Source: Dictyostelium discoideum
Lineage: Eukaryota
Assembly: GCA_000004695.1 (NCBI GenBank)
Contig: CM000153.2
Span: 4,832,001-4,896,000, forward strand
Length of the DNA: 64,000 bases
Reading direction: 5' to 3'
Shown here: in pieces, positions 6,501 to 39,540 of the stretch
Numbering within the stretch: the first letter of the stretch is position 1
Layout of the letters: each line of letters begins with the position of its first letter
Notes under the pieces: model-generated
Database searches by the model: none
Told to the model about the DNA's origin: nothing
Seen by the model: the letters and a program-made list of their open reading frames with translations, nothing else
Translations under genes and position numbers: made by a program

Positions 6501-8527
6501 GGTGGTTCAAACTCTTGTAATAATCAAACTGGTACTTGCTCATGTGATTCATCCCTTCAAGGTGGTGATTGTTCATTACCATTAATCCAATGTCCAACTT
6601 TTAATTCATTATCATGTAATGGTGGTTCAAATCAATGTAATAATCAAACTGGTATTTGCTCATGTGACTCATCCCATCAAGGTAGCGATTGTTCATTACC
6701 ATTAATCGAATGTCCAAATGTTAATTCTTTACCATGTAATGGTGGTTCAAACTCTTGTAATAATCAAACTGGTAGTTGCTCTTGTGATTCATCTCACCAA
6801 GGTATTGATTGTTCATTACCATTAATCCAATGTCCAACTTTTAATTCATTACCATGTAATGGTGGTTCAAACTCTTGTGATGATCAAACTGGTACTTGTT
6901 CATGTGATTCATCCCATCAAGGTAACGATTGTTCATTACCATTAATCCAATGTCCAACTGTCAATTCATTATCATGTAATGGTGGTTCCAATCAATGTAA
7001 TAATCAAACTGGTACTTGCTCATGTGATTCATCCCATCAAGGTGGTGATTGTTCATTACCATTAATTGAATGTTTAAATGATTGCAGTGGAAATGGTATT
7101 TGTGATACATACAAAGGAAAATGTCAATGCACTCCAGGTAAATTTATTGGTGAAGATTGTTCAATCATTTATCATTATGTTACATCAGTTAAACCATCAA
7201 CAACCAAAGGTGGATTAGCTTCATTTTATGGTGTTTTTGGTAATGTTCATGATTCATTAACTATTAAAATTGGTGGATTGGATTGTAAAATTGAAATTGA
7301 CCAAGTTTCAGATAATCAAATCGATTGTATTGCACCAGCTGGAACAGGTATTAAATCAATCAATGTAACACAAAATGGAGTAACTTATTTCAAAAATAAC
7401 TATTACCAATATCAATCAATTGAAACAGTTTTACAATGTCCAAAAGATTGTTCAGGAGCAAACAATGGTATTTGTAATACTACAACAGGTCAATGTACAT
7501 GTATTAATGGTTATGGTTCACACGATTGTAGCGAACTTTCAAATAACAACAATAATAATAGTAACGGAGGTGGTAGTGATAGTGATTCAGAACTTCCACC
7601 AACAGTTATCGTTGTTGATCCAGGAAAGACAAATATTACAAATGGAGAAACCAACTTTTTAATTTACATTAAATCAATTTCAGAAATTGATTATGAAGGA
7701 AATATTTTAAAAACTTTCCCACTTAATAATGTTTGGGAAAAAGTTAATTCAACAGATTCAAATACCTATATTTACAAACAAAAATTGGAAAACACAAATT
7801 GTATTGTTGAATCAAAGATTGAAGAAATTACAAATAAAGATGGAAAATTATTTTCATTCGCAGATGTTGATTTTAAAGTTGAAAGTGGTTCAGTTAAATT
7901 CTCAATTTCAGTTAGTAATTATACATATATTAGTAATTTAAATAATCTTCAAATTGAATTAATTTCGGAAACATCACAATTAGCTCAAGATGATAATAAT
8001 TGTAATGAAGTTGATACATCATTAGATACATCAAATTTTAATAGTGAATCAAATTTGAACTATATTAAAATTTCAAAGAATAATAAAGTACTCTCTGGTA
8101 GATTCATTAATAAAGTAGTTTCAGATGGTAAAGTTACTTTCCTCGACTCAATAGCAACAAAATCAACATCAGATTCAATTTCAATTACATTAAATTTACC
8201 ACATTGTACATCTCAATGTTTAGTTGATCCAGGTATGTTTTTTTTTTTTTTTTTTAAATTTCTAAACTAAAACCAAAGTAAAATACTAATTTTTTTATTT
8301 TTATTTTTTATTTTTATTAAAAAATAGATTTTTCTGTTTTACTTTCATCAGATTTCAAATCAAAATGTGGTGAAAAAGATGATAAGAAATCATATGTTAT
8401 TCCAGTAGCAGTTGTCTCATCAGTTGTTGGTGTAGCTTCAATTGGTGCTGCTAGTTTTATTATTTACAAAAAGAAATACATTGAAAATCCATTAAAAAAG
8501 AAATTAAGCAGAGCTTCACAAAATTAA
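3533..8527 (+). CDS. Type-I cell-surface protein of ~1562 aa. Modules: signal peptide, plant-type LRR-like N-terminal region ('LTGTID/LTGTIP'), 11 tandem 40-aa EGF-like Cys repeats, an IPT/TIG domain, further EGF-like modules, a C-terminal transmembrane helix and a short cytoplasmic tail. Exons 3533..3744, 3852..4085, 4190..8232, 8328..8527.
   Basis: Exon 1 encodes 'MKNQIIFYFLILLFSTFYISFSNSQ' (signal peptide) and ends at GTAAGT (3745). Exon 2 follows 'tatag' (3851) and ends at GTAATT (4086). Exon 3 follows 'tttacag' (4189) and contains the long ORF with repeated 'CDSSHQGxDCSLPLIQCPTFNSLxCNGGxNQCNNQTGxCS' and the TIG-like segment 'IKIGGLDCKIEIDQVSDNQIDCIAPAGTGIKSINVTQNG'. It ends at GTATGT (8233). 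Exon 4 (after 'aaaatag', 8327) encodes 'VIPVAVVSSVVGVASIGAASFIIYKKKYIENPLKKKLSRASQN*'. Total 4689 nt = 1563 codons, frame-consistent. Confidence 0.7.
5823..7075 (+). repeat. Coding minisatellite: ~10.5 tandem copies of a 120-bp unit (one 40-aa EGF-like module each) with very high nucleotide identity
   Basis: 'tgtgattcatctcatcaagg' recurs at 5823, 5943, 6063, 6183, 6303, 6423, 6543, 6663, 6783, 6903 and 7023, an exact 120-bp period. Units differ by only a few substitutions (e.g. K/I/G/S/N at one residue). Confidence 0.9.
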
Positions 8528-8733: not shown

Positions 8734-9072
8734 TTAATTCTCTTGGTGATAATTTATATAATTTAAACAATTTAATACTGTTTTAATTTTATCCATATCT
8801 TCAACTGGTACTTGAATATCAAACTCTTTCTCTATTTTAGCATATAATTCAAATAGTTTCCCATATGGTCTTGTTTCTGCAGTATTGGTAATTAATGTTG
8901 AAAGTTCGATTTTCTCTATTTTTGTACCTAAATATTTTGCTATAATCTTTTTTAATTTTTCTTCATTTTTACTTTTATCCTTTAATAGAAAAAAAAAAAA
9001 AAATTATTAATAATTAAATATATATCAATTATATTATATATAATAAACAATAATAATTACAATTTTGCCCAT
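8734..9072 (-). CDS. Small (83-aa) protein resembling the acyl-carrier-protein helical bundle but lacking the DSL phosphopantetheine-attachment serine. Exons 9072..9061 (MGKI) and 8979..8734.
   Basis: The rc gives 'ATGGGCAAAATT|GTAATT…(T)12ctattaaag|GATAAAAGT…'. Product: 'MGKIDKSKNEEKLKKIIAKYLGTKIEKIELSTLITNTAETRPYGKLFELYAKIEKEFDIQVPVEDMDKIKTVLNCLNYINYHQEN*'. The pattern I.A..LG…E.EF.I..P.E…KI.TV…YI mirrors the ACP consensus, but 'NTAETRP' replaces 'DLGADSLD'. Confidence 0.35.
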
Positions 9073-9264
9073 AGTTTTATATATAAAATATTTTTTTGAC
9101 TTTATTTTAAAAATAAACTAAAAAATAAAAATATTGTGTGTGTGGTTTGTTTTTTTTTTTTTTTTTTTTTTTAAATTATTTGTTTTTATTTTATATTTTT
9201 ATTTTTAATCATGTGATGAAAAATAAATAATTTTTATTTATAATTAATATTTTTTATAATTTAA

Positions 9265-11802
9265 AATTTAATTTAAAGATTCTTCAACAAAATCATCATT
9301 TTGTGGTGATTGTGTTGAAGTTTGAACTGGTGAATCAATTTGTTGTGGTTGTTGTGATGAATCTTGTTGTTGTTGTTGTTGTTCTTCATTCTTTGGTTGT
9401 TGTTGTTGTTGTTGTTGTTGTTGTAAATTTATAGATTGTGGTGGTTGTTGTTGTTGTGGTGGTTTAGTTGAAGTTATTGATTTTGGAGAATTCATAGTAT
9501 TTGAAATTGCAGCTTCATTTCTTTTTCTAGTAACAGCTTTATTAATAGCATCTTTCATTTTTCTTAAATTATTATTAATAATTTGAGATTGAATATCAGA
9601 AGCCAATTGAGTAACTCTTTGTTGAACTGTTGTAGTGGTATCGACTAAACGAAGACGTTCTTTTATCATTTGCATTGATGGTGAATTCTCTGGTTGTTTT
9701 AAGAAATCAGCAATATCTAAAACCAACATTGGCATATGTTGAATTGATTGATTACGTTTGAAACCAATTGAGAAATATTCTAAACCTACTGTAGTTGTTA
9801 AATTTTCATCCCAATATAAAGTTTTAATAGTTTTATTTACTTGAATTACACGACCTAAAGTAATGGCTAAATCATCACCAGCATGATGACCAGAGATATC
9901 GATTTCAGTGATTGTATCATTTTTTAAGAGAGCATGAGCCAATGGTATAATGTCACCCTTTACACGACCATTATTTTGACCAGCAAAATGTAAAGTTTCC
10001 AATGGACATAAACTAAAAGATGATGGTGAAATTAATTTAACCAATGATTTAACTGCATTACCTAATGAACCACTACCAACACCACCACCACTACCACCAC
10101 TACCACCACTTGAATCACCTGTAAGTTTTGAAGTTACTTTTGAAATTGATAATTTATTCATAATATCGGTATTGATAGTGAAATTACGATTTATATAAAG
10201 ATGTTTTAATTTTGGTAGGGTAGTATGACAGAGTATATCTACCAATGTAACAATACCCTCTTCCTCTAATTCATTATCAGAAAGATTCAAACGAATTAAG
10301 TTGATAACTGATGAAAGAATTGTATAGATTGAATTTGGTGATGGACAAGTTGATGATAAATCTATATCTGCAAGATTTGGACAAATCATTGAAAGGAACA
10401 ATGAAAGATCATTAGCATTTTGTTCGAGTTGTTGTTTATTTGATGCATTGAAATTCAATTTATTAGCAGATAAATCAAGTTTTGAAATGATTCTAGTCTC
10501 TTTTGATTTTTGAATGGTTGGTGGTGGTTTAATAGCTGACCAAGTTGGTTGACAATTAGACATTTCAAATTGACGCAATGCAGTTGCCTCTGATAAAAAC
10601 AATACCATATCAGAGGCAGCATCCTCCATACGATTACCAGAGACTGAAAGGAATTTCAAGTTCTTTGAAATCCATTTATTTTGTCTAAAAGCTCTGAAAA
10701 GGTTGGAAAGACCTTGCTTACCGATATTACATTTCGATAGATTGATGGAATGAATCTCATGAGAGATCGTAGATAACCAATCGTTACAAAGGAATTGCAC
10801 ACCACGATCTTCGATTGAATTATTTGATAAATCAACTTGAGTTAAATAGTTATTGAATGCCAATGACATCCAAGTCTCTGGTGTTATCCAAGATTCTCTT
10901 GCATTGATATTAGAAAGTTGTAATCTCGATATCTTTCTATTGGTTTCCAATACCCTATTGACTGAATGCACGCCATCATTACCAATCTTACATTGAGTCG
11001 ATGGTGTTGAGTTTGCCACAGTCACCGATTCAAACCATTGATTATACTTTAATGCATCAATCATTGCTCTACCTTGTTGAGGTGTTGGTGATTCTGGCCA
11101 ATCACTTAAATTTAAATCTTTAATATTATTAGACTCAAATAAATTATCAACTTCCCAACAAATATCCTCTCTAACTTGAATACCATAAAAATCTGAACAA
11201 CAACGATATGTTCTTGAAAATCCACCACATGCTCCAATATTTAAATTATTATTATTATTTGATGTTGTTGTTGTTGTCGTATTACCATTTTTACTCTCTT
11301 GCATACCAGGGAAATTTAATGAAAACATTTTCTTTATTGCAATTGATAATTCTTGAACTTTTTCAGAATTATTAAAGTTAATTGTAATTTGATTAAATTT
11401 TAAGGTTGCCTCTTGTTCTGAACTACCTTCAGTTGTTATTTGATAATCTAATAAATCTAATATATGTGCATCGAATAATGGTTTACTACTTGATGATGTT
11501 GAAAATACATGAAATCTAAATGATGAAACTATTAATATCTTTTGTTCTTCTTGTTGTTGTTTTGATGATGAAAAGAAATTCTTTTTTTTTAATTCTGTAT
11601 ATATTCCACTAAAATAAATTTGTTTTCCTCTTAAATATTGTTCAATATTTTCTTTTTAATTTTTTAATTTTTTTTTTTTTTTTATTATTTAATTAGTATT
11701 AAAATGAAGTTCAATTTTTGTTATTATTTTTATATTTTATATACTTTTTTCACTTGGACCAAAACTGGAGTCTGTTGGAAATATTAAACGATTTTCATCC
11801 AT
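9265..11802 (-). CDS. CARMIL homologue (capping protein / Arp2/3 / myosin-I linker family), ~814 aa. Architecture: N-terminal PH-like region, leucine-rich repeats, Q-rich C-terminus. Exons 11802..11745 and 11651..9265.
   Basis: 'GACGGFSRTYRCCSDFYGIQVREDICWEVDNLFESNNIKDLNLSDW…AMIDALKYNQWFESV' aligns with human CARMIL1 '[46 protein letters not shown]…IIAALEYNQWFTKL'. The upstream in-frame extension gives 'EEQKILIVSSFRFHVF…SIAIKKMFSLNFPGM', matching CARMIL 'ENKVLVLTSCRAFLV…CLRKIFPGL'. The first exon 'MDENRLIFPTDSSFGPSEK' ends at GTATAT. The acceptor is 'ttaaaaag'. LRR consensus 'LDLSxNxL' is repeated. Confidence 0.75.
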
Positions 11803-13410: not shown

Positions 13411-13532
13411 ACAATACATATATATTGTAAAATAATAAATAAAAATAAAAAAAAAAAAATAATTAAAATAAATAAATAAATTTATTAATTGGGAGGGGGA
13501 AAGGTTAAAAGTAACAATATGAATTTTAAAAT

Positions 13533-13826
13533 TTAGAGAACTTTAGCTTTAATATGAATTCCAAGTAAACCTAATAAATTGGCCATAATATCAGCATTGA
13601 TTAAACTTGTTGATTGATTACCACCAAATGAAGAAGTCATTCCTTTGGTATTACTTGAATTTACAGAGATTGTTTTGTTCAAAGAATTACCATTTTGAAT
13701 TGAACCAATGCTAGAAATTGAAGCTAAATAATTAAATAATTAAAATTTAGAAATCGAGGAGTTGTAATAAAAAAAAAAAAAAAAAAGAAATAATAATAAT
13801 ATTTTATATTTACAAATTAATGTCAT
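13533..13826 (-). CDS. hssA/2C/7E-family small Ser/Gly-rich protein, copy A. Exons 13826..13814 and 13723..13533.
   Basis: 13-nt exon 1 'ATGACATTAATTT|GTAAAT'. Acceptor 'ttatttag'. Product 'MTLISSISSIGSIQNGNSLNKTISVNSSNTKGMTSSFGGNQSTSLINADIMANLLGLLGIHIKAKVL*'. The MT(L/I)L…SIS.IG…GNQS pattern is typical of the family. Confidence 0.7.
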
Positions 13827-13868
13827 TTTGTTTGTTTGTTTGTTTGTTTGTTTGTTTGTTTGTTTGTT
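13827..13868. repeat. (GTTT)n microsatellite in the 5' flank of hssA copy A
   Basis: 'tgtttgtttgtttgtttg…' ×10. Confidence 0.9.
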
Positions 13869-14919
13869 TGTTGATTTGTTTATTTAAATTTTTGATTTAG
13901 TGAAAAAAAAAGTTTAATTTATAGAAAAAAAAAAAAAAAATACATTATTAAGAAAAATGATAATAATATTTAAAAATAATACAATAGTACAGTTTTTTAC
14001 TAAAAATATTTGAAATACATTTGATTATTAAAGAAGTAAAATTATTTTAAAAAGGAATAGATCAGTTTTGTTGAACTTTCTTTCTAATAATAATTTTAAA
14101 ATCTAGATAAAATATCTAATTTCAATTAATCAATATAAAGATCTAACTTTATTAAGTGGGAAAATAAATAAATGATATTTGTAAACAGAACAATGTTTTA
14201 GTGCCCTATTAAAAAAAAAATTAAAAAATTAAATCTCACCCACTTTTCTTTAACCACACAAACACAAAAAATTTTTTTTTTTCTCTTTTTAGTTTCAAGA
14301 TTTACCAATTTCTTTTAATAATCAATGTATATTGTGATATATTTGTTTGTTTGAAATTATTATTAATTTTAATTAATGATAGTTTATATATATTAAAAGA
14401 AGGAAGAAAATTTAATATCCAATTATAATAAAAAAAAAACAATAAAACTATTAATGTACAACCACTGAACATTAAAAAATAAAACTGTTTCTAGAATAAT
14501 TTTGGTTTATTTTATTAAAAAGAAAACCCTTAGAATATGTTGATAATATTGATAGTCAATATGTAATTGAAAAAAATAAAAATAAAATAAAATAAAATAA
14601 AATAAAATAAAATCACAAACCCACAGATTCTATTTTTTTATTTTTCTTTTTTTTTTTTTCCTTTTTTTTTTTTAAAACAAAATTAAACCCCCAAAAGTTT
14701 ACTATAATTTTATATATAAAAAAATTAATAAAAAGTAAAAATGGAAAATAATTGTAGAAAATTTTTTCTTTTATTTTTTATTTTTATAGTTAATTTAATT
14801 CTGAAAAATGATTAATTTAATCAAACTATAATAATTATAATTATAATCTATAGTAGAATTAATAATTTTATATTTTAAAATATATTTAATAAATTTAATA
14901 TTAAATTTGGCTTTTAATA

Positions 14920-15186
14920 TTAAAGTTGGGTAAATTGAATATATTTCAAGTAATTTGATCTATTAGGTATTCTTAAAATAGATATTGTAGATTGATTTCC
15001 ACTAAATGATGTTAATCCTTTTGCTCCATTATTGGAAATTGTACTGTTAGTTTTATTCAAAGAATTAAAGTTTTGAATTGAACCAATTTTAGAAATTGAA
15101 GCTAGATTCGAAAAAAAAAAAGATTTAAAATCAATACTAATTAATTAATATTAAAAATATAATTAATAATTACAAAATAAAGTCAT
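14920..15186 (-). CDS. hssA/2C/7E-family protein, copy B, with a divergent C-terminus. Exons 15186..15174 and 15101..14920.
   Basis: 'ATGACTTTATTTT|GTAATT'. Acceptor 'cgaatctag'. Product 'MTLFSSISKIGSIQNFNSLNKTNSTISNNGAKGLTSFSGNQSTISILRIPNRSNYLKYIQFTQL*'. Confidence 0.6.
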
Positions 15187-15815
15187 TTTTAAAGTTTTAG
15201 TTTTTTGTTTTTTGTTTTTTAATAATTTTATTTAATGATAAAAAAAAAGTTTAATTTATACAAATAAAATTTATAATTATAAATTAAATAATTAAAATTA
15301 AAAAATATTATTTTGAAAGATAAATTTAATAAAAAATAAAAAAATTCCCCTTTTGGAAAGTGAATTACAAGGTTTCAGTGAACAAGAGGATAATCTGTGC
15401 ACATGTTTTATATATTTTGAAATAATTTCATTTCAAAACCATTTGCTATTTTTAAAAAAAAAATATTTTTAATTTAATAAAAATCTAAAGAATAAAAAAA
15501 AAAATTCAACAATTTCAAATAACATAACCGAACATTTTTTTAAAAAAAAAAGAAATTAATATGAACACAACCACACCAAAACTCCTGGCACACAAATCAA
15601 CACAGCCACAAAAACTAAAAAAAATTGTGATGTTTGGTTTTTAAAGAGCATTATTCAATTAAATAGGGTGGTACACAAGAAATTCTTCATTGTTTTTCTT
15701 TTTTATCATTACATCTTTTTTTTTTAAAAATAATAATTAAGCTTTTAAAATAATTTATTGTTATTCATTTTTTTTTTTTGTTTTTTTTTTTTTTTTTTAA
15801 TTTCAAATCGGTTCA

Positions 15816-16078
15816 TCAAAAAAGCTTTCCAAAAAAGTAATAAGATCTACCCATATATATGGTAGATTGATTTCCACTAAATGAGGTTAATCCTTTTGCT
15901 TCATTATTAGACATTGTACTGTTAGTTTTGTTTTCGTTAATAGAATTACCGTTTTGAATTGAACCAATTTTGGAAACTGAAGCTAAATTTTAAAAAAAAA
16001 AAAAAAAATTTAAAAAATCAATACTATTTAATTAAAATTAAAATTAAAATTTATTTAATATTTCCAAAATAAAGTCAT
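15816..16078 (-). pseudogene. hssA/2C/7E-family copy C, probably a pseudogene: the splice donor is mutated GT>GG and the C-terminus is divergent.
   Basis: Exon 1 'ATGACTTTATTTT' is followed by 'GGAAAT', whereas copies B and D have 'GTAATT'. The exon 2 product '…SFSGNQSTIYMGRSYYFFGKLF*' departs from the family. Confidence 0.5.
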
Positions 16079-16739
16079 TTTAAAGTTTTTGTTTTTTGTT
16101 TTTGATTTTGATTTGTTAAAAAATATTTTAATGATAAAAAAAAAGTTTAATTTATGCAAATAAAATTTATAATTAAAAATTAAAATAATTAATTTTAATA
16201 CTTATTTTGAATAACATTTCTTTGTTCAATGATGCAAGGTCTATATTAATTTTTAAACCAAACATGAAAAAAAGCTCTTCCTTTTTGGTTAGTGAATTAC
16301 AAAGTTCCAGTTACAATTATGACGCAATTCAGTGTGTGTTTTATTTATTTGGAAAAAAAAAAAATACTTCATTTGTAATTTTTCATAAATAAAAATAAAT
16401 TTGAAAATAAAAATAAAAATAAAAAATAAAACTTTTGACCAACCACAAAAATAAAACACTTGAAAAAATAATAAAAAATTTTCTCATTTGGTGGGTGATG
16501 CAATAAACAATGTGTGTTGAGATATGCGCTATTTATTTTATAAAAAATTATTTTTATTATTTAAAAAAAGAATAAATTATCAATTGTCCCATTACAATTT
16601 TATCACTTTAATCTCATAAGCCCTATTAATATCAGGTAAAGTTATTTAATCAACTGCTTCAGGTCAATATTGTAATTATCGATTTTTTATTGTTCTTACA
16701 ACCAAAGTTGAACATTATTAAAACAAAATAACCAAAACT

Positions 16740-16960
16740 TTAAAAAAAATAATCTAGGTTTTTAATATTAAATCCTTTTACTTCATTATTAGAAATTGTA
16801 CTGTTAGTTTTGTTCAAAGAAATACCATTTTGAATTGAACCAATTTTAGAAATTGAAGCTATATTAAAAAAAAAAAAAAAAAAAAAGATTTAAAAATCAA
16901 TACTAATTAATTAATTAATTAACATTAAAAATATAAATAATAATTACAAAATAAAGTCAT
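16740..16960 (-). pseudogene. hssA/2C/7E-family copy D, truncated by an internal deletion (43 codons). Exons 16960..16948 and 16858..16740.
   Basis: 'MTLFSSISKIGSIQNGISLNKTNSTISNNEVKGFNIKNLDYFF*'. It lacks the 'LTSFSGNQST…' segment present in copies A, B, E and F. Confidence 0.45.
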
Positions 16961-17723
16961 TTTGAAGTTTTAGTTTTTTGTTTCTGATTTGTTAATAATT
17001 AATTTTAATGATTAAAAAAAGTTTTATTTATACAAATAAAATTTATGATTAAAAATTAAATAAATCAAATTATATTATTTTCAATTTAAATTTAATTCAA
17101 AAAAATTAATTTTAAAATAATTAATTTTAATACTTATTTTGATTAACATTTGTTTGTTCAATGATGTAAGGTCTATATTTATTTATAAACTCAACACAAA
17201 AATTTACCCATTTGTTAACTGAATTACCAAGTTTCTGTGACCTCGAGGATAACACAATTCGGTGTGTTTTATTTATTTAAAAAGTAAAAAATAATAATAT
17301 TTATTATTATTTTTTTTTTTTTTTTTTAGTTAATTTTTTTATTTATTTATTTAAAATCAATGCTAGGTTTGAAGTGTAATAGTAATAAATTTTATTTATT
17401 TGAACTTTAATTTTTTGATTAATAGAATTTTTATTATTTGGAAACACAATGTAGTTCCAAAGTTTTGCTTTTTTTTTTTTTTTATTTTTTTTTTTAAATT
17501 TTTTTTTTTTATTTTTAAATTTTTTTTTATTTTATTTTATTTATGGTTAAAATCACTGCAGGGAAATTTACAAATATATTTAAAGCGATTTGATATATTT
17601 GGAAGTCACTCACTAAAAGAGAAAAAAGTGGGATAACTCATTAAAAAAGAAGAAAAAAATTGGAATTAAAAAAAAATAAATTGTTTATTTTTGTTTTTTT
17701 TTTTTTTAGAGAAAAAGATGGGC

Positions 17724-17992
17724 TTATTTATTTTTTGTTGTGGCTTTAGTAATTATAGCAATTTGAAGTAATAAATCCCCTATAGATTTTGTTGATTGAT
17801 TTCCGCTAAATGATGGTGATCCTTTAGCTTCATTGTTAGAAATTGTACTGGTAATTTCGTTCAAAGAATTACCGTTTTTAATTGTGCCAATTTTAGAAAT
17901 TGAGGCTAAATTAAAAAAAAAAAAAAAAATTTAAAATCAATACCAATTAATTAATTTTAAAAATATAATTAATAATTACATAACAAAGTCAT
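17724..17992 (-). CDS. hssA/2C/7E-family protein, copy E. Exons 17992..17980 and 17905..17724.
   Basis: 'ATGACTTTGTTAT|GTAATT'. Acceptor 'aatttag'. Product 'MTLLSSISKIGTIKNGNSLNEITSTISNNEAKGSPSFSGNQSTKSIGDLLLQIAIITKATTKNK*'. Confidence 0.6.
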
Positions 17993-18929
17993 TTTAAAGT
18001 TTTAGTTTTTTGATTTTTATTTAAGGTTTTTGTTTTGTTTCTGATTTGTTAATAATTATTTAATGATGAAAAAAAAAGTTTAATTTATACAAATAAAATT
18101 TATAATTAAAAATTAAATAATTTAAATTAAAAAATATTATTTTGAAAGATAAATTTAATAAAAAATAAAAATAATTAATTTAATACTTATTTTGATTAAC
18201 ATTTCTTTGTTCAATGATGTAAGGTCTATATTAATTTTTAAACCAAACACAAAAAAAAACTATACCCTTTTGAGAACTGAATTACAAAGTTCCAGTTACG
18301 CTATTCGGTGTGTGTTTTATTTTTTTGGAAAAAAAAAAAAAAAAATACATAATTTGTAATTTTTCATAAATAAAAATAAAAATAAAAATAAAAATAAAAA
18401 TAAAATAAAAAATATATTTTTAAAACTTTTGATCAACCACAAAGATTAAACACAATCATAATAAAAAATTTCTGTTGGTAAGTGACGCAATAATCAATGT
18501 GTGTGTTGAGATATGTGCTATTTATTAAAAAAAATTATTTTTAATTTAATAATTATAATTAAAAAAGAGAATAAATTATTTCAAACTACATAATTGAACA
18601 TTTTTTTAAAAAAATGAAATTTATATGAACAAAAACACACCAAAACTCCTTATACACCAACCCGCACAGCCACAAAAATCACCAAAACTTTGTGATGATT
18701 GTTTTTTAGAGCATTGGATTAAATGGGTTGGTGCACAAGAAATTCTTCATTTTTTTTTTTTATCAATTGCCCCATGCCAATTTTATCACATTAATTTCAT
18801 TTATTATTATACATTTTTGGATTTATGAAAGCAAATAAAAAATAAACAAATTTTCGAGAAAAAAGGCTTTTTTGAAAAAAAAATAAGGGAAAATTTTTTT
18901 TTGTTTTTAATATGAACGTTTTTGGAAAA

Positions 18930-19420
18930 GAAGAATCAGATGAACCATTATTACCAGGTGTCCAAATTATTATTACATCAAATAGAACCTCAATTGCTGA
19001 TTAAAATGGTAAATACTCATTAAAAGATCAAGTACCAGGTTCATATTGTAAAAATGATTTTCCAGATCATTACATTCCACTCAAATATCAATTACATTAC
19101 CAATAGTCTTCAACAATCACCTATATTGATGGTGAGTTTCAATCATTTATAAGTAGGTGATTATTGCATCAAAGCAACACAACCAGATATATACCCATTT
19201 GTTGTAACTTCAAATGATTCAGTTGTTGACTCAACAGGCTAATTTTGTTTCAAACTAACACATTTAATCCAACTACAGCAACAACCTCGGCAACATGATT
19301 AAACTTCACAAACTCTATTTTAATAATGTCAAATTTGAATCAGTTACTAAATTAGGTTATGGATTCAATAGAAATTTAAACCTCCGATGACAACACCATT
19401 TGGAAAGAATGTTAATAGTA
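18930..19420 (+). pseudogene. Decayed gene fragment, possibly a carboxypeptidase-regulatory-domain-like (CarboxypepD_reg) repeat protein, with multiple in-frame stops
   Basis: 'PGVQIIITSNRTSIAD*NGKYSLKDQVPGSYCKNDFPDHYIP' resembles the '.G..V.v……TdadG.f.l..l.pG.Y' pattern. The frame is broken repeatedly downstream and there is no intact ORF. Confidence 0.25.
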
Positions 19421-20455
19421 ATAGTAATAGTAATAGTAATAGCATTAATAAGTAACCACAACTAATACAAACACAACGGCCAACTAACACAACAGCCGCC
19501 ACAAGTTCTTTTACAATATAATCAAATTGAACAATCAATGAAAATGTGTTATCTTGTAAATTTAAATCATCTATCAAAATCATTAGATTCAATTAAACTT
19601 AGTGGTGTGAATTAGTTTCTAAGTAATTAATAATCAAATTAGTGCTCTTAGTAATAGTGATATTTTAGCAAAAACTAAAATCGGTTATTTTAAATGTTTT
19701 TTTTTATTAATTCATCTTTTTTTAAAAATAATAATAAAACTTTTTAAATAAATATTTATTATTTATTGTTTTTTATTATTTTTATTTTTATTTATTTTAT
19801 CAGTTAATTTTTTTCTTTCCTAAATTTAATTTAATTTTTTATTTTTAAAACCTATAATTTTGTTTATTTGCAAATTTTGGGTAATCTGATTATTTAATCA
19901 AAGTTTGAATTAAATAATAATAGAAATAAATTTTTTTTTTTTTTTTTGAACGTTAATTTTTAATTTTAAAAAAGGGAATAGATTTTGATTAAAAATTCTA
20001 TTAACAATTAAAAATGAAGAAAGAATAGAATTAGTAAAGGATTAAACTTTGTCAGAAACTAAACCTTTAAATCTAGATTTAAAAATAAAAATAAAGATTA
20101 AATCCCAATCAATAAAAACAAATTAATTAAATCATTTAAGTAAACATATAAAAAAACAAAAAAAAAAAAAAAAACGTGTGTTTTAAAACTTTTGAATAAC
20201 CACACTATATTAAAAAAAAAATTCTTTTAATATTTTAGATTTGAAGATTTACAAATATATAAAAAATGATGCAATAATAAATGCAAATGATGAGATGATA
20301 AAAGAAAAAACTATTTTTCATTTGTAAGTTAGATTTTATTTTTTTTTTTAAAAAAGTATTGTTTGTTTGTTAAAAAAAAAAAATATAAAAAGGGATAAAG
20401 AAAATTTATAAATCATTTCAAAATAAAAAAAACAACAATCAAATAAATAATTTAA

Positions 20456-20497
20456 AATGACACTTATTTGTACGTTTCATCTTTATTTTTGTCTTTC

Positions 20498-20534
<37 letters not shown>

Positions 20535-20748
20535 TAATACTGACATTTAAATTTAAATTATAATAGCTTCAATTTCAAAGATTAGCTCAGTTAATATTAA
20601 TTGTTTAAATAATACAATTTCAAATGGTGTTTCTAGCCAATCATTAACATCTTATGGTGGTAGTGAATCAACAAGTTTGGTTAATGCAGATATTATGGCT
20701 AATTTATTAGGTATTCTTGGTATTAGAATTAAAGCTGAAGTTCTCTAA
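20456..20748 (+). CDS. hssA/2C/7E-family protein, copy F (inverted, plus strand). Exons 20456..20468 and 20567..20748.
   Basis: 'ATGACACTTATTT|GTACGT'. Acceptor 'ttataatag'. Product 'MTLISSISKISSVNINCLNNTISNGVSSQSLTSYGGSESTSLVNADIMANLLGILGIRIKAEVL*'. The C-terminus is nearly identical to copy A. 195 nt, in frame. Confidence 0.7.
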
Positions 20749-20996
20749 ATTTGCACTGTATATTGTTTATACCACATTTATTTAAAAAATAATAATAATA
20801 ATCTTTGTAAAACTATATTTCACAATTAATAAAATAATTTAATTTTATGATTCACCAAATTTATTTTTTTTTTTTTTTTTTTTTTCAGATATTTTTCTTT
20901 ATTGGATTTTTTTTGATTAAAAAAAAATGGGTTAAAATTTGATTTTTTTTTTTTTTTTTAATTTTTTTTTTTTTTTTTTTTTTTTTTATATATTAA

Positions 20997-39145: not shown

Positions 39146-39540
39146 GTATTAATTTTTTTTTTTTTTTTATATATTTATAAAATTAGGGTCATAGAGTTAA
39201 TCAAATTGAATCATTAATTTTTTGGATTACATTATATGGCACACCAATATTCTGGATTTTATTTTTTTTAAAGTGTATAATTTCTCTTCAATTTGCTTGG
39301 ATTTTAAGTATGGTTATAATTTATACAATTAATTTTTTATTGTTTTTCCAATTTCCTAATTTTTTTTTTTTTTTTCCTTTTATAATAAATTCAGTACCAA
39401 TAATAGCATTATCATTAAATATGGCAAACGTTTATGGATTTTATAAATGTTCAAATAGTAATGTTTCAAACGCAGCTGCAACATTTGCATCAAACTATAT
39501 TGGTAGATCACTATTACAGCGTGCAAGTTCATTTATGTAA
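38527..39540 (+). CDS. Golgi membrane protein TVP23 (FAM18 / DUF846) homologue. Exons 38527..39045 and 39187..39540, with a possible extra in-frame 87-nt intron at 39308..39394.
   Basis: 'THPVAASVHVLFKLSAILLYLFSGLFGGGFILTFILCILLLSFDFYSVKNITGRLLVGLRWWNQVDPKDGSNKWYFE' carries the TVP23 core motif 'GR.LVGLRWW…dG.s.W.FE'. Donor 'gag|GTAATA'. The intron contains (ATT)n. Acceptor 'aaattag'. Confidence 0.75.

Follow-up and report, generated by a model that had tools for sequence, protein, structure and literature searches.

A conserved gene pair and a tail-less tandem lineage in a cluster of small sigN/hssA-related genes of Dictyostelium discoideum

A stretch of 64,000 nucleotides (nt) from chromosome 4 of Dictyostelium discoideum AX4 (CM000153.2, positions 4,832,001 to 4,896,000; hereafter the window, to which all coordinates refer unless stated otherwise) contains six copies of a small gene, A to F, in a cluster with a local adenine plus thymine (A+T) content of about 80%. 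The cluster is a divergent offshoot of the roughly 100-member sigN/hssA/2C/7E family of small proteins. According to the reading that we favour, with a probability of about three in four, A and F are an ancient pair under selection for a hydrophobic C-terminal tail, whereas B to E belong to an old lineage that lacks this tail and was amplified, its members acquiring private lesions. The reference annotation and the work of Vicente et al. (2008) already contain the cluster itself, its gene plan, the family assignment and the duplication-based origin proposed for clusters of this kind, so the importance of the findings is limited and nothing in them should surprise a specialist. The mildly new points are the existence of a constrained-tail subfamily in six dictyostelids and the old, tail-less and highly expressed E lineage. 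The analysis also adds the family membership of F and the pseudogene status of C to the annotation, and reads an apparent gene conversion between A and F as purifying selection.

The six copies and their shared gene plan

The copies and their parts are as follows.

Copy A (DDB_G0286685, sigN175), 13533-13826, minus strand: intact, 67 amino acids; exon 1 13814-13826, intron 13724-13813 (90 nt, GT..AG), exon 2 13533-13723
Conserved hydrophobic tail of A, 13536-13607, minus strand: codons 44-67 (SLINADIMANLLGLLGIHIKAKVL)
Copy B (sigN181 of the 2008 list), 14920-15186, minus strand: open reading frame (ORF) of 64 codons, tail lost; exon 1 15174-15186, intron 15102-15173 (72 nt), exon 2 14920-15101
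Copy C, 15816-16078, minus strand: unannotated pseudogene, 59 codons if spliced; exon-1-like 16066-16078, intron-like 15983-16065, exon-2-like 15816-15982
Splice-donor lesion of C, 16064-16065, minus strand: GG where GT is expected
Copy D (sigN178), 16740-16960, minus strand: 43 amino acids, annotated hssA/2C/7E family protein; exon 1 16948-16960, intron 16859-16947 (89 nt), exon 2 16740-16858
Copy E (sigN173, DDB_G0286781), 17724-17992, minus strand: 64 amino acids, open ORF without the conserved tail; exon 1 17980-17992, intron 17906-17979 (74 nt), exon 2 17724-17905
Copy F (DDB_G0286689), 20457-20748, plus strand: intact, 64 amino acids, divergently oriented; exon 1 20457-20469, intron 20470-20566 (97 nt), exon 2 20567-20748
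Conserved tail codons of F, 20674-20745, plus strand

In all six copies, exon 1 measures 13 nt (ATGAC...), the intron is 72-97 nt long with AG at its end, and the exons are joined in phase 1; the N-terminus encoded by this plan has the form MTL(I/F/L)SS(I/V)S.... The motif made up of exon 1 and the donor is matched six times against 0.30 expected, and none of 100 shuffles gave six or more matches. The five minus-strand copies have their ATGs at 13826 (A), 15186 (B), 16078 (C), 16960 (D) and 17992 (E), with successive spacings of 1360, 892, 882 and 1032 nt, and the ATG of F, on the plus strand, is at 20457. These places agree with those given by an earlier reading of the sequence alone (the original prediction), apart from the ATG of F, which had been put at 20456. 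The loose exon-1 pattern is matched a seventh time (ATGACCCTAATTT, 39180-39192, minus strand), with no GT donor following it, and this match was taken as chance.

An ancient head-to-head pair with a conserved tail

The C-termini of A and F had been described as near-identical, and 20 of their last 24 amino acids are indeed the same, with the consensus ...DIMANLLGxLGIxIKAxVL. The tail is kept in relatives of 63-68 amino acids from five other dictyostelid species belonging to four genera: D. firmibasis, in which two proteins were found, one A-like and one F-like, and D. purpureum, Polysphondylium violaceum, Acytostelium subglobosum and Cavenderia fasciculata, which have full-length relatives of 64-66 amino acids. 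The gene plan recurs in every one of these relatives, with an exon 1 of 13 nt, a GT donor and an intron that is 62-106 nt long, and their tails end in ...A(K/R/S)VL. The last 20 residues or so can be written as a subfamily motif, (D/N)I(M/L)A(N/D/S)(L/I)LG(L/I)(L/I)G(I/L)x(I/V)xA(K/R/S/E)VL, which is present in A, in F, in the chromosome 3 paralogue DDB_G0282551 and in the relatives from the five other species, and absent from B to E in any frame. The paralogue, compared as protein, is 90% identical to A, which implies a fairly recent inter-chromosomal duplication of an A-type gene.

The D. firmibasis locus is syntenic with the D. discoideum cluster on both flanks and carries a single A-type gene (minus strand) and a tandem set of three F-type copies (plus strand), the tail being intact in each of the four; F is orthologous to RB653_000209. 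A (minus strand) and F (plus strand) are an ancient head-to-head pair, each with an orthologue at the syntenic locus. When the A and F genes of D. discoideum (DdA, DdF) and D. firmibasis (DfA, DfF) are compared over codons 1-43, 17 sites group the genes by orthology, one by species and three otherwise, and the split between A and F therefore predates that between the two species. Bootstrap values are 100% for the F clade and 87% for A with DfA.

Several features of the related loci were noted in passing. Two apparently intact F-type genes on D. firmibasis CM069766.1 (locus-local 7747-8050 and 8900-9160), between RB653_000227 and RB653_000209, are uncalled in the annotation; they encode 63 amino acids, with a 13-nt exon 1 and the conserved tail, and the protein of the copy at 8900 is identical to that of the annotated gene at 10001. 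P. violaceum AJWJ01000387.1 has three subfamily genes (plus, minus, plus) within 2 kilobases (kb; locus-local 898-2872), and D. purpureum GL871548.1 two in tandem (locus-local 693-1782), all with intact tails.

The original prediction held that the cluster is a birth-and-death array in which gene conversion keeps the C-termini of A and F alike. Conversion is not needed to explain the likeness, since the tail is kept in the five other species. Over the last 24 codons, the DNA of A and F is 83.3% identical, which is the level of the orthologue pairs (84.7% and 81.9%), whereas the recent D. firmibasis pair DfX2/DfF is 100% identical. A conversion tract, in which paralogues would be closer to each other than orthologues at both synonymous and non-synonymous sites, was not found. 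Between A and F, the rate of synonymous substitution (dS) has the same value, 0.52, for the tail as for the entire gene, and the rate of non-synonymous substitution (dN) is 0.116 in the tail against 0.231 overall. Selection is favoured because only dN drops in the tail, whereas conversion would lower dS locally. The dN/dS ratios of the orthologue pairs in the tail are also low, at 0.09 (A versus its D. firmibasis orthologue) and 0.14, with a dS of about 0.75. Taken together, these comparisons show that purifying selection maintains the similarity of the A and F tails, and they do not support recent gene conversion.

Some observations nevertheless weigh against this interpretation. The tails of A and F are joined by a 103-nt inverted repeat that is 84% complementary. 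Site patterns in the tail include none grouping the genes by orthology and two grouping them by species (Fisher p=0.059), one of the latter being a replacement (Ala in all three D. discoideum copies, Thr in all four D. firmibasis copies). Moreover, the tail dS of A and F (0.52) is not above that of the orthologues (0.74-0.76), although the paralogues are older; these low values are, however, saturated for a third position that is largely a two-state A/T character. More generally, the sequences are about 200 nt long and about 80% A+T, so that trees, dN/dS ratios and homology endpoints rest on few sites, and synonymous sites are near saturation between species. The two species-pattern sites point to possible old conversion or concerted evolution in the tail; that conversion is what has kept A and F alike seems very unlikely.

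The proteins of the A/F subfamily, of about 65 amino acids, share in all six dictyostelid species a plan made up of an N-terminal helix (MTLIS...), a disordered Ser/Asn-rich linker and a hydrophobic C-terminal helix. AlphaFold, run with a 10-sequence alignment, predicts helices at residues 3-10 and 48-57, the latter, in the tail, being the part predicted with the best confidence; the model as a whole has low confidence (predicted local distance difference test score, pLDDT, 58.5), which also counts against the reading that we favour. The tails are uniformly hydrophobic, with a mean Kyte-Doolittle hydrophobicity over 19 amino acids of 1.4-1.7 (1.43 in A), a low helical moment and a conserved G-x-x-G spacing, and the hydrophobic character is lost in the tails of E and B. 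It is plausible that the hydrophobic G-x-x-G helix serves for membrane association or self-association in prestalk and stalk cells. A subfamily that spans six dictyostelid species with a constrained hydrophobic C-terminal helix provides a handle for functional work on an uncharacterised family.

A tail-less lineage derived from the A side

Copies B to E group together with a bootstrap value of 98%, and their sister group is DdA plus DfA (87%). Sites at which DdA and DfA agree with each other and differ from a state common to B-E and F number 6-8, against 0-4 for either alternative. Being sister to the two A orthologues, the B-E lineage is therefore older than the split between D. discoideum and D. 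firmibasis, and on these trees it is an old lineage of its own, which left the A side ahead of the species split. Comparisons of E with the other members of the lineage give dS values of 0.34-0.47, and comparisons among B, C and D values of 0.10-0.20. The absence of any B-E-type copy from the syntenic D. firmibasis locus tells against such an age, which requires either a loss there or a copy elsewhere. Tail-less derivatives were seen in D. discoideum only, among the dictyostelid loci compared.

In BLAST comparisons, the homology of A to B, C and E stops at 13607-13609, that is, at the first codon of the 24-codon tail. A profile of the intact members covers, in the coding frame, positions 6-40 in B, C and E and positions 6-33 in D, and none of the frames of these four copies gives a match to the tail. 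The homology of D to the other copies ends at 16771, around codon 34; it had been thought to have lost 43 codons, but 43 is the length of its ORF, the loss being about 21-24 codons of the ORF. B, C and E remain colinear for 10-45 nt past ...GNQST, up to a shared TTATTACTT block, which E reads in the phase of A and F and which is one base out of phase in B and C. The C-termini of B and E, described previously as unrelated, are colinear with each other and with C up to this block, and it is beyond it that no significant similarity is found. That the C-termini are simple frameshifts of one sequence, named in the original prediction as grounds for rejecting it, holds only for this one block in B and C, and the ancestral tail cannot be recognised whichever frame is read. 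Comparisons between the 3' ends beyond the mapped endpoints gave no similarity that was significant against an AT-rich null for any pair, and the ORFs run on past the TTATTACTT block for 9-19 codons, as fits a stop probability of 0.10 per codon.

Several readings of the 3' ends were considered and rejected. To the eye, the end of E resembled an in-frame, indel-bearing homologue of the ancestral tail (DLL..I..KA), but the profile finds none and global alignments are weak (for A versus E, z=3.7, driven by the 5' part). B likewise seemed to keep 'ILKAKF' in another frame, but the profile of intact members again finds no tail in any frame. Finally, D was considered as an internal deletion rejoined to a B-like tail, with 14 of 15 positions matching where the deletion would lie, but the full alignment does not reach significance.

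The shared homology endpoint and the lack of any trace of the tail in any copy lead us to prefer a single loss, and suggest that one ancestral tail loss was followed by tandem amplification. The founder of B-E would have lost its tail once, most simply through a 3'-truncated partial duplication with its breakpoint at codon 43/44, and each copy would then read into unrelated AT-rich sequence until a chance stop. Unequal crossing-over may have amplified this founder, in units consisting of the gene with 0.35-0.8 kb of 5' flank, and the younger copies would have gained lesions of their own: the phase shift of B and C, the GT>GG change of C and the truncation of D at about codon 34. The single breakpoint belongs to the model, and gradual erosion after a loss of constraint would give the same endpoints, which is a point against it. 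It has to be weighed against the independent decay of four complete copies, through deletions and frameshifts occurring after amplification, which we regard as unlikely. Each copy has lesions of its own, such as the GG donor of C, the truncation of D and, in B, about 15 nt of additional sequence, and the 15-mer at the breakpoint of D (TTAATATTAAAAACC) is nearly that of the B tail (TTAATATTAAAAGCC), hinting at an internal deletion in D; but the alignment of these 15-mers scores 19 against a mean of 20.1 for the AT-rich null and is not significant, the homology to A ends at the same place in B, C and E, and a single ancestral loss explains more parsimoniously why no frame of any B-E copy retains a trace of the tail.

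Expression and fate of the copies

Birth-and-death evolution of multigene families, the model of Nei and Rooney, fits the cluster, as had been proposed. Both copy number and the side that expanded vary by species, with four extra A-side copies in D. discoideum, three F-type copies in D. firmibasis, two genes in D. purpureum and three in P. violaceum; there are lineage-specific gains and losses, at least one copy (C) is a pseudogene, and paralogues group by gene and not by species. Nothing in this is unusual for the model; the tail gives weak hints of old concerted evolution, at a few sites.

The description of the members as decaying was too broad. It holds for C, which is dead as a protein-coding gene: the predicted GT>GG change is present in its donor, no productive alternative donor exists in the copy (the sole other GT sits behind an in-frame stop), and the unspliced ORF encodes seven amino acids, MTLFWKY. 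B and D are probably degenerating. E, by contrast, is strongly transcribed during development, as can be seen from published RNA-seq values for A, E and F (Kin et al., 2018, PMC6198379, supplementary file 5; time course from Parikh et al., 2010), given here for 0, 4, 8, 12, 16, 20 and 24 h.

Copy E: 0, 0.65, 1244, 793, 262, 183, 102
Copy A: 0, 0.31, 74, 448, 166, 55, 65
Copy F: 0, 0.33, 13, 228, 102, 51, 33

In the published data, prestalk cells express all three more strongly than prespore cells do, stalk cells contain their transcripts as well and vegetative cells do not, and all three have been classed as 'max mid devel, rblA-activated' (Strasser et al., 2012). The peak of E is the highest of the three, but its values could include reads from B, C and D, which are 83-92% identical, and this weakens the case for E. 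Being strongly transcribed and developmentally regulated, E may still be under selection.

It has to be considered whether B-E are decaying at all, or instead form a functional tail-less subfamily (including at least E), acting as shorter proteins or as transcripts. The expression of E argues for function, as does its sharing of the developmental and RblA-dependent regulation of A and F. There is an excess of synonymous change between E and B or C (p=0.01-0.02), a TATA/T-run block is kept in five of five minus-strand copies and the splice signals in four of five, and the lineage has persisted since before the split of D. discoideum and D. firmibasis. Activity at the transcript level has been reported for hssA, a frame-shifted version of which retains suppressor activity, as relayed by Kin et al. 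(2018); reading-frame loss therefore need not abolish function in the sigN/hssA family. On the other side, C has no donor and a changed TATA box, D is truncated, the model of B has been dropped from current protein sets, and the 3' ends differ in every copy, with stops at chance-like distances. No coding constraint is detectable among B, C and D (p=0.1-0.5), and published expression data were found for A, E and F only, not for B, C and D. The introns of B-E are conserved as well as or better than their exons, which fits poorly with constraint on E and weighs against that part of our reading. A functional subfamily of this kind is a possibility that we take seriously without favouring it. The more specific suggestion that B-E represent a new type of gene born from a 3'-truncated duplication, with E as its oldest member, and acting as a tail-less antagonist of A/F, as a soluble variant of them or at the RNA level, is more doubtful still. 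What we retain is an ancient A/F pair under selection beside an old tail-less lineage in which C is dead, B and D are probably degenerating and E may be maintained.

Relationship to the sigN/hssA/2C/7E family

The hssA/2C/7E label given to the cluster by the original prediction was correct: D and E carry it in the annotation, and the published family table includes A, B, D and E. This sigN list contains 96 genes, 89 of which have a 13-nt exon 1 followed by an intron and exon 2 (Vicente et al., 2008; PMC2257962). Its rows sigN175 (13//190, intron 89, 67 amino acids), sigN181 (13//181, intron 71, 64 amino acids), sigN178 (13//118, intron 88, 43 amino acids) and sigN173 are chromosome 4 entries that agree in the lengths of exons, intron and protein with A, B, D and E, respectively (PMC2257962, Additional file 1); F and C are not in the list. 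The proteins of A, D, E and F match XP_637620/Q54LE1, XP_637622/Q54LD9, XP_637623/Q54LD8 and XP_637624/Q54LD7 exactly; those of D and E are annotated as members of the hssA/2C/7E family and those of A and F as 'hypothetical'. The exact protein of B was not found in current protein collections, and C was found neither in protein collections nor in the published sigN list. F belongs with the sigN/hssA family despite its 'hypothetical' label, and C is an unannotated pseudogene.

The family assignment is based on the shared gene plan and N-terminal motif, together with the published list and the pattern of expression, and not on significant sequence similarity. The gene plan is found in all six copies, C deviating in its GG donor. 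Proteins of fewer than 120 amino acids that are listed or annotated as family members are encoded by A, B, D and E, F and C being unlisted, and induction in development and in prestalk cells can be seen for A, E and F in published data; SrfA dependence has been shown in the literature for chromosome 2 sigN genes only. By sequence, no copy reaches the gathering score (21.4 bits) of PF05710, the HssA/B-related domain (bioRxiv 10.64898/2026.03.01.708701), and a Pfam scan of the six proteins gave nothing significant; sub-threshold matches to PF05710 were obtained for eight of 14 clade members, the best having an E-value of 0.0077. SigN1 has been described as Ser/Gly/Cys-rich, with four conserved cysteines (Vicente et al., 2008), whereas the proteins of the cluster have zero or one Cys and a Ser/Asn/Thr content of 34-42%, and A, B, D and E are only 14-22% identical to SigN1. 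An exhaustive HMMER search with a clade profile among 1.84 billion representative proteins yielded 10 matches, none of them to a classical Gly/Cys-rich sigN/hssA protein of 87-99 amino acids, and a word-indexed protein search with the shared N-terminal 43 residues returned only D and E and no classical sigN/hssA protein.

In common with the sigN (SrfA-induced gene N)/hssA genes (Vicente et al., 2008; Kin et al., 2018), those of the cluster consist of a coding exon 1 of 13 nt and a second exon, with one short intron between them, encode proteins of fewer than 120 amino acids beginning with MT(L/I)...S(I)S, lie in small arrays containing head-to-head pairs that are thought to have been born by duplication, and are induced at about 8-12 h of development with enrichment in prestalk cells. 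They differ in encoding 43-67 amino acids instead of 87-99, in lacking the Gly/Cys-rich region and the four-Cys motif, and in that the intact members have a conserved hydrophobic tail of their own. The chromosome 2 sigN groups also consist of tandem and inverted near-identical small genes with conserved intergenic promoter regions, for which the duplication of an original, oppositely oriented gene pair was proposed (Vicente et al., 2008). However, within each of those groups the genes share about 95% identity and every one is intact, whereas the amplified copies here are 83-92% identical and all without the C-terminal motif, and at least one is a pseudogene.

Repeat units, upstream blocks and the E-F spacer

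The copies had been thought to sit in tandem units of about 1 kb. This was imprecise: in a BLAST self-comparison, the repeated unit is the gene with 0.35-0.8 kb of 5' flank. A BLAST run without low-complexity filtering gave mostly poly-A/T noise, and relaxed scoring of the spacers gave many uninformative matches of about 58-60% identity. The units, with their matches to that of E, are listed below.

Unit B, 14978-15762, minus strand: 5' two-thirds of exon 2, intron, exon 1 and about 0.58 kb of 5' flank; 14978-15346 versus 17782-18176, 84%; 15262-15762 versus 18338-18818, 67%
Unit C, 15835-16617, minus strand: 15835-16580 versus 17766-18579, 75%; 16577-16617 versus 18760-18800, 88%
Unit D, 16771-17314, minus strand: the shortest; 16772-17314 versus 17819-18364, 77%
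Unit E, 17766-18818, minus strand: the longest, used as reference

Alignment and a regular-expression search identified a (T/C)ATAAAT(T/A)AAAC-T(7-9) block 60-90 nt upstream of the ATG in all five minus-strand copies.

TATA-like box and oligo-dT run 5' of A, 13903-13926, minus strand
Equivalent TATA/T-run blocks, minus strand: 15240-15263 (B), 16136-16159 (C), 17014-17035 (D), 18069-18092 (E)

Since Dictyostelium promoters have a TATA-plus-T-run architecture, these blocks are putative core promoters. The TATA-like box is (G/C)TATAAAT in A, B, D and E and GCATAAAT in C, where the alteration is possibly a second inactivating change besides the GG donor.

The spacer between E and F contains the remnant of an ORF that does not belong to the family.

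Decayed ORF remnant, 18913-19414, possibly to about 19650, plus strand

It has at least eight stops and two frame changes, and its conceptual translation includes ...LPGVQIIITSNRTSIAD*NGKYSLKDQVPGSYC.... It gave sub-threshold Pfam matches to SdrD_B (E-value 6e-4) and CarboxypepD_reg (E-value 2e-3), and no parent copy was found within the window or at the D. firmibasis locus. A fragment of this remnant seemed by eye to recur 3' of D (16634-16770), which would have put a duplication breakpoint within the ORF, and was rejected, the local alignment score being 17 against a mean of 20.9 for a null made up of other AT-rich parts of the window. At the other end of the cluster, a (GTTT)n/(CAAA)n microsatellite of about 11 units (13829-13875) lies in the 5' leader of A and abuts its start codon on the 5' side; the other copies have short degenerate versions of it only (CAAAAA repeats).

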